A DNA stretch of 64,000 nt, taken from NCBI GenBank assembly GCA_030651305.1, contig JAUSCI010000073.1, positions 5,155 through 69,154 on the forward strand, in the 5' to 3' direction. Position numbers and translations under genes: made by a program. Positions 11,290 to 46,001 of the stretch are shown here, one piece after another. Position 1 is the stretch's first letter. Every line of letters starts with the position of its first letter. The notes beneath the pieces are model-generated. The model made no database searches and had not been told where the DNA came from. It saw only the letters and a list, made by a program, of their open reading frames with translations. Origin of the DNA: Sulfuritalea sp. GTDB taxonomy: Bacteria; Pseudomonadota; Gammaproteobacteria; Burkholderiales; Rhodocyclaceae.

Positions 11290-11997
11290 TCACCCTTTAG
11301 TTACGGCCGCTTCGCTTAACGCCATAATGCCGGCGTTAGCCTCCACTGAAACAGAAGGTTTAAGTTCCGGCATAACGCCGATTAGGCTGGCGTTAGCCTC
11401 CACTGAAACAGAAGGTTTTGGTTCCGGCATAACGCCGATGAGGCTGGCGTTAGCCTCCACCGAAACTTCGTTTTCAATTTCAGTCAACGGCGGCAGTTCA
11501 GTGAGGCTGCGCAGGCCGAGGTCGTCGAGAAACTTTCGCGTGGTTGCATACAGCGCGGGTCGCCCCGGCGCATCACGATGCCCCACGGCATCTATCCAGC
11601 CACGCCCTTCAAGGGTCTTCAGAATGTTCGGCGACACTGCCACGCCACGAATGTCTTCAATGTCGCCGCGCGTCACGGGTTGACGATAGGCGATGATCGC
11701 CAGCGTTTCCATCACCGCACGCGAATATTTCGGCGGCTTGTCGTTTTTCAGTCGGTCTATGTAGAACTGGTACTCGGGGCGGGTCTGGAAGCGCCAGCCG
11801 GAGGCCAGTTGCACCAGTTCCACGCCCCGCTCGGACCAGTCGCGGCGCAGGTCATCGAGCAGCGTGCGCCAGGTGTCGTCGTCGAACTCCTGGTCGAAGA
11901 GCTTCTTCAGTTCGGCCAGGGGCAGCGGCTCGGCAGCCACCAGCAGCGCGGTTTCCAGCACGCGCTTGTAGTCGTCGGGCTTATACAGCGGCAGCAT
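11290..11997 (-). CDS. scpB: SMC-Scp complex subunit ScpB with a repeat-containing C-terminal tail
   Basis: [28 protein letters not shown] and [10 protein letters not shown] motifs. Confidence 0.94.
11332..11466. repeat. 57-bp in-frame tandem repeat (about 2.4 copies) in the scpB 3' end
   Basis: GGCGTTAGCCTCCAC(T/C)GAAAC starts at 11332, 11389 and 11446; encodes [16 protein letters not shown](P/L)KP. Confidence 0.95.
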
Positions 11998-24149: not shown

Positions 24150-24688
24150 AAGCCATTCCCACCGCAATCCCGGAAGTGCTGCTGCTGGAGCCGAAGGTAT
24201 TCGGCGATGACCGCGGCTATTTCTATGAAAGCTGGAACAAGCGGACCTTTGCCGAGCTCGGCATCGATGCCGACTTCGTTCAGGATAACCACTCCAAGTC
24301 GCAACAGAAAGTGCTGCGCGGCCTGCACTACCAGATCCAGCATGCCCAGGGCAAGCTGGTCCGCGTCACTGCCGGTGCGGTGTATGACGTGGCCGTGGAC
24401 CTGCGCCGTTCCTCGCCGAGCTTCGGACTATGGGTCGGCTTCACCCTGTCCGCCGAGAACAAACGCATGGCCTGGATTCCGCCGGGTTTTGCCCACGGCT
24501 TTTGCGTCACATCGGACTCCGCCGAGTTCCTTTACAAGACCACTGATTACTGGAGCCCGGCACACGAGTGCACGCTGTTGTGGAACGATCCGCAACTCGC
24601 CATTCCCTGGCCGCTGACGGGCGAACCGCTGCTGGCGGCCAAGGATGTTGTCGGCACGCCATTCGGCCAGGCCGAAACCTTCGCATGA
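24146..24688 (+). CDS. rfbC: dTDP-4-dehydrorhamnose 3,5-epimerase
   Basis: [26 protein letters not shown] and PPGFAHGF; ATGA overlap with rfbA. Confidence 0.96.
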
Positions 24689-25584
24689 ACGAAACGATGC
24701 CATCGGCCAAAATCCTGCTTGCCGGTTGCGCCGGGCAACTTGGCCGCGAATTGAAGCGGTCGCTGGCCTGCCTCGGCAATGTTATCGCCTGCGACCGGCA
24801 CCAGCTTGATCTCGCCCAGGCCGATGCCCTGCGCGAGGCCGTGCGTACCATCGCCCCCACGGTAATCGTTAACGCCGCCGCCTACACCGCCGTGGACAGG
24901 GCCGAAGCCGAGCCGGCCGTGGCCGACACGATCAATGCCGTGGCGCCCGACATCCTCGCCGGGGAAGCGAAGCGGCTGGGCGCGCTGCTGATCCACTATT
25001 CGACCGACTACGTTTTCGACGGCAGCAAGGCAACGGCCTACACGGAAGACGACAACCCTGCGCCCCTGTCAGCTTATGGCCGCAGCAAGCTCCGCGGCGA
25101 ACAGGCCATCGCCGCCTCGGGTGCCCGGCACCTGATTTTCCGCACCAGCTGGGTGTACGGCCTGCATGGCGCCAACTTCATGAAAACCATGCTGCGCATG
25201 GGCCGCCGCAGTTGCGAGACGAGCGATGAACTGCGCGTTATCGGAGACCAGATCGGCGCGCCGACGTGGACGCGCCATCTGGCCGATGTCACGGCCCTGG
25301 TCATCGCCCGCCGCGATATTCCCGGCGGTCTGTATCACCTGACCGCGGCCGGCGAGACCAGTTGGCACGGCTATGCCGAAGCCATTTTCGCCGCGGCGCG
25401 AGCTGCCGGATTGCTGGACAAATCGCCCGTGGCGCGCCGTATCACCAGCGCCGACTATCCACTGCCCGCGGCGCGACCGGCCAACTCGCGGCTTGACTGC
25501 TCGCGTTTCAGGCGCGACTTCGGCCTGGCCCTGCCCGACTGGCGCATCGGATTGATCGATTGCCTCGCCGACGCGCACTTCTAA
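24685..25584 (+). CDS. rfbD: dTDP-4-dehydrorhamnose reductase
   Basis: GQLG, VNAAAYTAVDRAE, YSTDYVFDG and YGRSK; ATGA overlap with rfbC. Confidence 0.95.
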   Translation: MNETMPSAKILLAGCAGQLGRELKRSLACLGNVIACDRHQLDLAQADALREAVRTIAPTVIVNAAAYTAVDRAEAEPAVADTINAVAPDILAGEAKRLGALLIHYSTDYVFDGSKATAYTEDDNPAPLSAYGRSKLRGEQAIAASGARHLIFRTSWVYGLHGANFMKTMLRMGRRSCETSDELRVIGDQIGAPTWTRHLADVTALVIARRDIPGGLYHLTAAGETSWHGYAEAIFAAARAAGLLDKSPVARRITSADYPLPAARPANSRLDCSRFRRDFGLALPDWRIGLIDCLADAHF

Positions 25585-25594
25585 AATGCAGTTG

Positions 25595-25675
25595 GACGCA
25601 AAGACGCAAAGGCGCAAAGGAATTCAAGAACAGAATTCGCCGTTGGTCTACTTTGCGTCTTTGCGCCTTTGCGTC
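25595..25675. repeat. Intergenic inverted repeat with arms of three tandem 8-bp (A/G)CGCAAAG units (element A)
   Basis: Left arm GACGCAAAG-ACGCAAAG-GCGCAAAG (25595-25619), 31-bp spacer, right arm CTTTGCGT-CTTTGCGC-CTTTGCGTC (25651-25675). Confidence 0.92.
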
Positions 25676-25701
25676 GAAAGCACTTAGGATCAATCCCCGA
25701 T

Positions 25702-27678
<1,977 letters not shown>

Positions 27679-27704
27679 AGAACCATGAAATTCAGAATCG
27701 ATTC

Positions 27705-27819
27705 AGCCACAGAGATCACAGAGGACACAGAGAAAAACCCTCGTGTCATCGACACGACTCTATTGTCACAGCTGAAATGGAATTGCTTTATCTCTGTGAG
27801 CTCTGTGTCCTCTGTGGCT
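27705..27819. repeat. Intergenic inverted repeat with arms of three tandem 9-bp NN-CACAGAG units (element B)
   Basis: CACAGAG at 27708/27717/27726 and CTCTGTG at 27792/27801/27810; outer AGC/GCT; the 57-bp spacer contains the hairpin TCGTGTC-ATC-GACACGA. Confidence 0.93.
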
Positions 27820-27833
27820 AAAAGGTTTTCGGC

Positions 27834-45812: not shown

Positions 45813-45864
45813 CGACCACACCAGCCCGGTCGCCCGACGAACCAATCCTGGAATTCAAGACCAA

Positions 45865-45959
45865 TTAGCCACAGAGCACACAGAGAGCACAGAGAAAAGC
45901 ATGTGGTATTGCTCTGTGTCCTCTGTGATCTCTGTGTCCTCTGTGTCCTCTGTGGCTAA
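45865..45959. repeat. Intergenic inverted repeat of 9-bp NN-CACAGAG units, 3 left and 5 right (element C)
   Basis: CACAGAG at 45870/45879/45888; CTCTGTG at 45912/45921/45930/45939/45948; outer TTAGC/GCTAA; 17-bp spacer. Confidence 0.93.
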
Positions 45960-46001
45960 CGGTTTTGCATTTCGCACGTTGACCTGCACTGAAATTTTGC
46001 T

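Follow-up and report, generated by a model that had tools for sequence, protein, structure and literature searches.

A tandem-unit hairpin between rmlD and parE in a Sulfuritalea genome is probably a gene-less relic of a GxxExxY-linked cassette family

The 64,000-nt stretch of Sulfuritalea sp. DNA analysed here (contig JAUSCI010000073.1, positions 5,155 to 69,154; hereafter the window) carries rmlD, also named rfbD, followed by parE and parC, with gene identities assigned by NCBIfam (parE as parE_Gneg, 2e-213). Between rmlD and the parE start codon (ATG at 25702) lies element A (25595-25675), an inverted repeat with three NCGCAAAG units in each arm, and two further inverted repeats, elements B and C, lie downstream. 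The features are as follows.

24568 to 25584, forward strand: rmlD open reading frame (TIGR01214 rmlD, 1e-96), with its TAA stop codon at 25582 to 25584.
25585 to 25596, no strand assigned: left outer terminus of element A, AATGCAGTTGGA; its outer limit is approximate, and the 14-25-nt spacers of 21 congeners lack it.
25597 to 25619, no strand assigned: left arm of element A, with CGCAAAG cores at 25597-25603, 25605-25611 and 25613-25619, linkers A and G, and a period of 8.
25620 to 25650, no strand assigned: loop of element A, 31 nt, with a sequence peculiar to this copy.
25651 to 25673, no strand assigned: right arm of element A, with CTTTGCG cores at 25651-25657, 25659-25665 and 25667-25673, and linkers T and C.
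25674 to 25680, no strand assigned: right outer terminus of element A, TCGAAAG, which recurs at the ends of other cassettes and paralogues.
25681 to 25701, forward strand: probable native rmlD-parE spacer, CACTTAGGATCAATCCCCGAT, sharing CAATCC and a rough length with the empty spacers of congeners.
27680 to 27829, no strand assigned: element B, between parE and parC, with CACAGAG cores at period 9 and the direct repeat ATGAA on its flanks.
45841 to 45966, no strand assigned: element C, with CACAGAG cores in arms of 3 and 5 units.

The 25-nt left arm (25595-25619) reads GA followed by CGCAAAG A CGCAAAG G CGCAAAG, and the 25-nt right arm (25651-25675) reads CTTTGCG T CTTTGCG C CTTTGCG followed by TC; the two are complementary at 23/25 positions in register, and both mismatches are linker bases. 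An earlier reading of the letters without database searches (the sequence-only reading) had described three units per arm, 23/25 complementarity and a 31-nt spacer, with the element starting 10 nt past the rmlD stop and ending 26 nt before the parE ATG, all of which we reproduced. The inverted repeat extends to 28 nt at 89% in a repeat search (25592-25619 / 25651-25678), a shift of the arms by one unit gives two perfect registers of 15-17 nt, and both 8-bp arrays are detected by Tandem Repeats Finder. The two-unit pattern CGCAAAGNCGCAAAG has 4 matches in the window, while 0.08 are expected and 0/100 shuffles equal this count. Folded as RNA, the 117-nt rmlD-parE spacer reaches -49.9 kcal/mol (z = -6.2, with 0/200 shuffles as stable), and as DNA -32.7 kcal/mol; inside the loop, two GAATTC words (25620-25625, 25633-25638) form an inner mini-hairpin. 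The three-core inverted repeat at rmlD-parE is a genuine DNA hairpin.

Its position between two genes and its strong fold are compatible with a host regulatory element for parE or rmlD, be it a terminator or attenuator, a promoter in the right arm, or an operator array. The sequence-only reading had proposed a hybrid parE promoter from TTGCGC (25661-25666) standing 18 nt before TAGGAT (25685-25690); the spacing is correct, but a sigma-70 scan does not call this pair, and TAGGAT more plausibly holds the parE Shine-Dalgarno sequence, given the SD-like AGGA at 25686-25689, 12 nt upstream of the ATG. There are no terminator-like sites in 25300-26000 and no U/T tract after the stem, which continues CGAAAGCAC, and element A is not an intrinsic (Rho-independent) terminator. 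Rfam at E <= 1 places nothing on element A, not even an rRNA match, and on element B only two chance plant-miRNA matches (E = 0.3-0.5).

The rmlD-parE synteny is kept across the genus, which allowed the site to be compared between species. We read the spacers of 29 congeners: 21 measure 14-25 nt, and the other 8 contain unrelated inserts of 100-230 nt. Element A was found in the sister genome G071 alone among 52 congeners searched (48 matched), where the filled site aligns as one block with 91% identity over 339 nt, the arms being identical at 50/50 positions and the loop at 29/31. The site is thus polymorphic for presence and absence, and these comparisons show that element A is inserted DNA, shared with G071, where the other congeners have a spacer of 14-25 nt or an unrelated insert. 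The inserted DNA starts within a few bases of the rmlD stop, and a by-eye alignment indicates that 25681-25701 is the probable native spacer. Whereas the sequence-only reading had allowed for a single-copy oddity fixed across distant relatives as an ordinary terminator, element A, although single-copy in this genome, is not a terminator and is missing from every matching congener except G071. The words GCACTT on either side (25575-25580, 25680-25685) were considered as a target duplication and rejected; since G071 reads ACGCTT on the left, this flanking repeat is not ancestral, and no target duplication was found for element A.

Short or unrelated spacers in congeners indicate that parE needs no such element, and its arms recur at unrelated sites, both in relatives and in other phyla, as described below. 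One further observation would favour host regulation: between this genome and G071, element A differs at 2 of 81 nt and its flanks at 13 of 113 nt (chi-square ~5.4, P ~0.02, calculated by hand), which suggests either constraint or homogenisation. Weighed together with the missing U-tract, the absence of a terminator call and the uncalled hexamers, a regulatory role for the host seems to us highly improbable.

Some of the unrelated inserts have relatives elsewhere. An unrelated repeat of ~110-190 nt (…gatgaaacaCGCGAAAg…cgcccctcccatcctcccctcgcggggagg…gctcgcttcgctcga…) occupies rmlD-parE spacers of congeners (L028, L030, L040, L043 and L051) and is present in this genome at C56:28917-29203 and C47:82360-82685, spacers that CGCAAAG hairpins fill in other species; several families of small elements appear to use the same intercistronic sites. 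At 11317-11466 the window contains a 57-bp tandem repeat (2.6 copies, 91% matches; TAACGCCGATAAGGCTGGCGTTAGCCTCCACTGAAACAGAAGGTTTAAGTTCCGGCA), and a piece related to it (gtttcagtggaggctaacgcc…ggcgttaagc) is nested in the rmlD-parE insert of G017 (L043).

A generic scan of the 3.9-Mb assembly that looked for tandem units accompanied by their reverse complement returned three sets: 44 paired CACAGAG elements of period 9, including elements B and C; 15 paired GTGAAAN elements (GTGAAA cores, period 7); and, for CGCAAAG at period 8, element A alone. The 44 and the 15 share an identical design with element A, so that A is of the same element type as B and C, as the sequence-only reading had held. 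The purine-rich arm always comes first, the opposite order being absent, and the modal arrangement is 3 + 3 units (25/44 CACAGAG elements) within a range of 2 to 8 units per arm. With few exceptions, an element has a gene end within ~30 nt on either side, and the neighbouring genes usually run in the same direction. The CACAGAG set has ~13 conserved outer bases (AAAACCnnTTAGC) with no conservation beyond them. Linker bases of the two arms are not compensatory (complementarity of 0.31 within elements vs 0.33 between elements). Cores kept in phase and conserved ends, rather than a perfect helix, point to sequence-specific recognition rather than to structure alone.

Two individual elements meet their neighbouring genes closely. 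Element B reads …aaccATGAA|attcagaatcgattcagc-CACAGAG … CTCTGTG-gctaaaaggttttcggc|ATGAAcaac, with the right ATGAA containing the parC start codon, and this repeat agrees with the 5-bp duplication of a subfamily in G025 and G036 described below. The GTGAAAN element at C47:26013-26083 parts two genes that in G019 (L183) share TAATG as overlapping stop and start; the upstream gene now ends at a TGA within the first GTGAAAC unit, and three GTGAAAN heptamers put TGA in all three frames.

The sequence-only reading had also linked A to C through GAATTCAAGA, which opens the loop of element A (25620-25629) and does recur near element C. This link is weak, because coding DNA contains the word often: the genome has 15 occurrences of the 10-mer and 65 of the 9-mer GAATTCAAG, the latter mostly as Glu-Phe-Lys codons. 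Finding it at both places therefore counts for little, and GAATTCAAGA was rejected as a family signature. Separately, GGAATTCAAG stands directly beside or inside 4 hairpins of three core types, where ~0.2 would be expected from the space occupied; these are 4 of the 65 GAATTCAAG sites (C9:30774, C9:51005, C64:25181 and C81:37379), and the word may be a variant outer terminus or may occur there by chance in AT-richer spacers.

Genes lie within the loops of two cassettes of this genome. The CACAGAG arms at C57:269-682 enclose a GxxExxY gene (TIGR04256, 1e-38; PF13366, PDDEXK_3), and the GTGAAAN arms at C55:20704-21104 enclose a gene for a four-helix-bundle protein (TIGR02436; PF05635, '23S rRNA intervening sequence protein'). 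GxxExxY proteins have ~125 aa and belong to the PD-(D/E)XK nuclease family, with an invariant catalytic D67 and E77-x-K79 (D...ExK). The AlphaFold (AF2) model (pLDDT 90.6) finds its best matches, which are weak (E ~1e-3, TM ~0.5), among Cas4 and lambda-exonuclease folds, and a sequence search of the PDB gave no match. Every intact GxxExxY gene examined has tandem-unit arms on its flanks. PDDEXK_3 is a very large family whose function is listed as unknown (PMC3424549). Our literature search found no paper that prints these repeat strings or ties GxxExxY to repeats; a reverse-transcriptase paper that mentions GxxExxY was set aside as irrelevant to the repeats. The four-helix-bundle cargo in heptamer-armed cassettes shows that the nuclease is not always present, and since this second cargo in the same architecture is non-enzymatic, the nuclease need not be the mobilising enzyme. 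One could accordingly suppose that the hairpins are mobile and both cargo genes mere passengers, with the arms read by some other enzyme such as an unlinked transposase, or by host recombination or repair acting on cruciforms.

Loops are not shared between copies in this genome, and they have no similarity to the resident GxxExxY gene beyond ~9 nt. The idea that they are deletion remnants of that gene was therefore rejected, and copying and pasting of whole elements fails to account for most copies here. The loop peculiar to each copy, the non-complementary linkers and the range of unit numbers per arm would all fit a different history, in which no unit moves, the arms form or are refreshed in place through slippage, through gene conversion among dispersed copies or through the decay of full cassettes formerly inserted at each site, and element A is the scar of such a cassette at rmlD-parE; the lack of similarity to the resident gene speaks against such a history, to which we return with the evidence on insertion.

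The cores CGCAAAG, CGCAGAG, CACAGAG, CACGGAG and CACAAAG make up a continuum in steps of one substitution, with periods of both 8 and 9, and hybrid arrays occur, one arm of G071 being CGCAAAG-CACAAAG-CGCAGAG. G002 combines CGCAGAG/CGCGGAG at period 8 with CGCAAAG, G036 has CACAGAG at period 8, and G011 holds mixtures. Taking an arm to be at least two tandem CRCRRAG units at an 8-9-nt period, inverted and with the purine-rich arm 5' on either strand, element A has 3 + 3 units at period 8. From the continuum and the hybrid arrays it follows that the different unit and period of element A are variation inside one family; the sequence-only reading had made it a second sequence class of the same element type, of which the shared type is supported, as is a unit with several copies in relatives, but a separate class is not, as cores and periods grade into one another.

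Three-core CRCRRAG arrays were counted in 41 congeners and range from 0 to 85+84 per genome, with a reversed-pattern control near zero (~0). The GxxExxY gene is present in 18/41, and the median array count is 65 in genomes with the gene vs 3 in those without (Mann-Whitney P = 2.6e-4); no gene-bearing genome lacks arrays (0/18), vs 8/23 of the gene-less genomes (Fisher P = 0.006). This correlation argues against the cargo being a passenger. Conversely, three genomes are rich in arrays with no gene detected (G006, G021 and G036), and G053 has ~15 CGCAAAG loci with no GxxExxY gene found, as one would expect if another enzyme read the arms; the first three, however, are assemblies that are 78-86% complete, and gene-less genomes of this kind are incomplete MAGs.

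Element A is the sole intact CGCAAAG copy in this genome. A genome-wide search for the unit, which the sequence-only reading had suggested, recovered element A alone, and comparison with the sites of G071 copies revealed one collapsed remnant at C13:69099-69358, outside the window (cttcga-CGCAAAG-a-TTGCGTC-cgggaatcac), which is loopless and has a single unit in each arm. Relatives carry the unit in several copies, with 4 CGCAAAG loci in G002, at least 9 in G071, and ~20 in G039, which like G053 belongs to another family of the same order. The at least 8 further copies in G071 have the same ends and a loop of their own each, and two of them are orthologous to G002 copies; the loops of the G002 and G071 paralogues are unrelated to that of element A. 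The left terminus is conserved in the G071 orthologue and in the G071 and G002 paralogues, TTGGA / CTCGA precedes the first core in every copy of the CGCAAAG subfamily examined, and TCGAAAG also ends G071 paralogues and the trpE-trpG GxxExxY cassettes of congeners G017 and G007. At the C13 site, G071 and G002 carry a full 3+3 copy, which shows a decay route of these hairpins. At other sites of G071 copies, this genome has plain short spacers (C42, C59), no element (C68) or the unrelated repeat (C56, C47). These data show that the CGCAAAG subfamily is older than the split of these species and is now being lost in this genome. No cognate GxxExxY gene for CGCAAAG arms is present here, the only GxxExxY gene having CACAGAG arms; with one intact copy, one collapsed remnant and no cognate gene, element A is thus a relic of a decaying subfamily.

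Full cassettes also occupy the same sites across species. Between trpE and trpG, one cassette lineage is found in six species (G015, G025, G027, G011, G017 and G007), with arms of CACAGAG, CGCAGAG or CACGGAG depending on the species, and both arms change together. Its ends in G017 and G007 (TTTCAA|...|TCGAAAGAGG) resemble those of element A (TTGGA|...|TCGAAAG). The trpE-trpG site of this genome is empty, with 13 nt between the genes. Full GxxExxY cassettes with different arm cores are likewise seen between ribF and ileS in G002 and G039, which belong to different families. Either these cassettes are old and vertically inherited, their arms having changed in concert, or the same sites have been targeted more than once.

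Evidence for insertion comes from several sources. For CACAGAG and GTGAAAN elements of this genome, some 20 orthologous sites in congeners are empty, with divergence obscuring the junctions, and direct repeats flanking this genome's elements are not above permuted controls in either fixed-offset or flexible searches. A 165-nt subfamily (CACAGAG, period 8, with a conserved loop) is more informative: it has at least 10 near-identical copies in G036 and at least 12 diverged ones in G025, and 9/14 copies with two flanks carry perfect 5-bp direct repeats where ~2.6 are expected by random pairing (ATGAA five times, TTGAT twice, ATAAA and TTTAT once each). Matching empty sites with one pentamer and no element were found in G003, G018, G001, G013 and G020, the clean pairs coming from G025 copies; for G036 copies there was only one spanning empty-site match, without a usable alignment. 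From the 5-bp duplications and the orthologous empty sites we conclude that whole gene-less units insert precisely, at a 5-bp staggered cut, and, since these precise insertions with target duplications occur in a sister subfamily, that the hairpin family transposes. Many of the 165-nt insertions fall on ATGA(A), a word containing TGA and a downstream ATG. Judging from these junctions, the left copy of the word could keep the upstream stop and the right copy the start codon, and the element end GAGGTTTTTAGG would be positioned where a ribosome-binding site is needed.

These insertions bear on both remaining alternatives. A purely local origin of the arms would also agree with the concerted arm changes at trpE-trpG and with the collapse of one element here to a single unit per arm. 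Yet the near-identical whole copies in G036 and the precise filled/empty pairs with 5-bp duplications show that whole gene-less units transpose, and we regard a history in which no unit moves as rather improbable. The supposition that the cargo genes are passengers, for its part, gains from the length of the duplication, which is typical of several classical transposases; 5-bp target duplications are made by those of Tn3, Tn7 and Mu.

The arm type of element A is not confined to the Burkholderiales. Across species, with one genome per species, a scan for three tandem CGCAAAGN units returned at least 120 loci, with Acidobacteriota, Chloroflexota, Cyanobacteriota, Verrucomicrobiota, Planctomycetota, Chlamydiota, Bacteroidota, Myxococcota and Proteobacteria among the matches listed. 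Clear hairpins with recurrent ends (tCA|CGCAAAG...CTTTGCG|TGa) account for 28 of these loci. GxxExxY genes were found in 7/80 CGCAAAG loci of 8 kb that were examined: in Nostoc sp. 106C (L130) the gene lies directly within CGCAAAG arms, and it adjoins such arms in MAGs of Spartobacteria (Verrucomicrobiota), Alphaproteobacteria and Deltaproteobacteria (L121, L072 and L070). G039 (L055) has a GxxExxY gene inside CGCAAAG/CGCAGAG arms at its ribF-ileS junction. The arm type of element A therefore does enclose GxxExxY genes, at L130 and L055, and in no instance within this genome. We also observed CGCAAAG arrays in Nostoc, Anabaena, Dolichospermum and Calothrix. At three loci of G053 (L006, L014 and L231), CGCAGAG, CACAGAG, CGCGAAG and CGCAAAG arrays are nested in one another, which suggests compound elements, one hairpin having inserted into another's loop or arm.

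To place these genes, a maximum-likelihood tree was built from 23 GxxExxY proteins. One clade (98/97 support) unites proteins from five phyla, four of which have clear CGCAAAG/8 arms; for the fifth member, a Chloroflexota locus, this arm type is a provisional assignment. Outside the clade, at a position without support, is the G039 protein, which has mixed CGCAAAG and CGCAGAG arms. When the 11 arm types are mapped onto the tree, 10 changes are required, which is the minimum possible, while shuffled labels require 16.9 and 0/200 shuffles are as low. The cross-phylum loci were sampled through the repeat and are biased accordingly; the clade still excludes Burkholderiales proteins with other cores. 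On this phylogeny, GxxExxY proteins group by arm type and not by taxonomy. A match between protein clade and arm core across phyla is at odds with cargo that merely travels along, as are the correlation with array number and the arms on the flanks of every intact gene examined, and we consider it unlikely that an enzyme other than the cargo does all the reading, notwithstanding the two cargo families in one architecture.

Taken together, we propose that element A is probably, in identity and history, a gene-less, non-autonomous copy of a hairpin cassette family and a relic. The full-length form carries a ~125-aa GxxExxY PD-(D/E)XK gene in its loop, and each arm repeats a 7-nt core (consensus CRCRRAG) about three times at a period of 8-9, the 5' side being purine-rich. 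The cores would serve as recognition sites for the cassette's own nuclease or a partner enzyme, gene-less copies would be mobilised in trans through a staggered 5-bp target cut, and element A would now be immobile and merely inherited. A direct role of GxxExxY, acting by itself or together with a partner, both in core recognition and in moving gene-less copies in trans is a plausible reading that we would put at a little under even. We hold more tentatively the full proposal, in which GxxExxY cassettes would make up a class of their own, not described before, of autonomous mobile elements of very small size (~0.45 kb). Under that proposal, the ~125-aa protein would read phased 7-nt cores in two inverted arms and catalyse 5-bp staggered insertion, alone or with host factors; insertion would often fall exactly on ATGA stop/start overlaps, leaving the neighbours unharmed; protein and cores would co-evolve into specificity types that cross phyla; and gene-less hairpins like element A would be dependants that decay after loss of the cognate gene. 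If this were true, ORF-bearing intervening sequences in 23S rRNA would be accounted for along the same lines.

Several known systems resemble this one. REPIN or REP elements with a RAYT gene are reportedly found in Pseudomonas and Enterobacteria. Like them, the present family combines dozens of gene-less intergenic hairpins with one or two small genes that have these repeats on their flanks; among related genomes the number of repeats follows the presence of the gene, and repeat type and protein co-vary. Unlike them, its partner is a PD-(D/E)XK GxxExxY or four-helix-bundle protein and not a Y1 HUH transposase: genes within the arms match PF13366/TIGR04256 and PF05635/TIGR02436 only, and none is of the IS200/IS605-like type. 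The arms are also tandem 7-nt cores at an 8-9-nt period instead of a single ~25-nt REPIN palindrome, and the loops are unique. To our knowledge, 5-bp target duplications such as those of the sister subfamily have not been described for REPINs.

Miniature inverted-repeat elements (MITEs) such as Correia/NEMIS of Neisseria, RUP and ERIC are similarly short and intergenic, with terminal inverted repeats and no transposase, and share with the present elements a presence/absence polymorphism; the burst of near-identical copies with target duplications in G036/G025 is a further likeness. The arms here differ in being internally periodic, and in most genomes each copy has its own loop. Genes inside matching arms are only GxxExxY or four-helix-bundle genes, neither of them an established transposase. 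Correia elements duplicate TA and have 26-bp repeats, neither of which applies to this family.

Intervening sequences of 23S rRNA (IVS; Leptospira, Coxiella) likewise consist of a long stem around a small ORF of the same two protein families, and the four-helix-bundle family (PF05635) is confirmed here in a GTGAAAN-armed cassette. Element A, by contrast, lies between rmlD and parE and not in rRNA helices 9, 25 or 45 of a 23S rRNA, and it has no ORF; we know of no description of tandem-unit arms for IVS stems. RNase III excises IVS-type stems from rRNA. By analogy, element A may be co-transcribed in an rmlD-parE message and fold into an RNase III-type stem, a possibility that we rate as somewhat doubtful; RNase III might cleave this ~25-bp RNA stem, or the stem might lend stability to the rmlD 3' end. 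The STRR heptamers, reportedly a feature of heterocystous cyanobacteria, are also tandem 7-nt units dispersed in intergenic DNA, and CGCAAAG arrays occur in the same organisms; compared by description, STRRs are plain tandem arrays and not inverted arms around a loop or gene. Overall, the system works like REPIN-RAYT or a MITE and is set apart by its non-HUH gene and periodic arms. 'GxxExxY-linked tandem-unit hairpin cassette, gene-less form' is our working definition from the present analysis, as no published one was found.

Element A itself is an ordinary relic member, and the interest lies with its family. Hairpins of this kind fill the spacers of housekeeping operons (here rmlD-parE-parC), assemblies break at such repeats, and the hairpins are open to misannotation as terminators, promoters or regulatory sites. 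Based on our findings, GxxExxY/PDDEXK_3 and '23S rRNA IVS protein', two families previously without biological context, are now tied to one DNA architecture, which acts as a mobile element according to its filled and empty sites, 5-bp duplications, copy bursts and correlation between gene and repeat number, and which crosses phyla with repeat type still matched to protein clade. This leads to a testable hypothesis, that of a minimal nuclease that would read phased 7-nt words.
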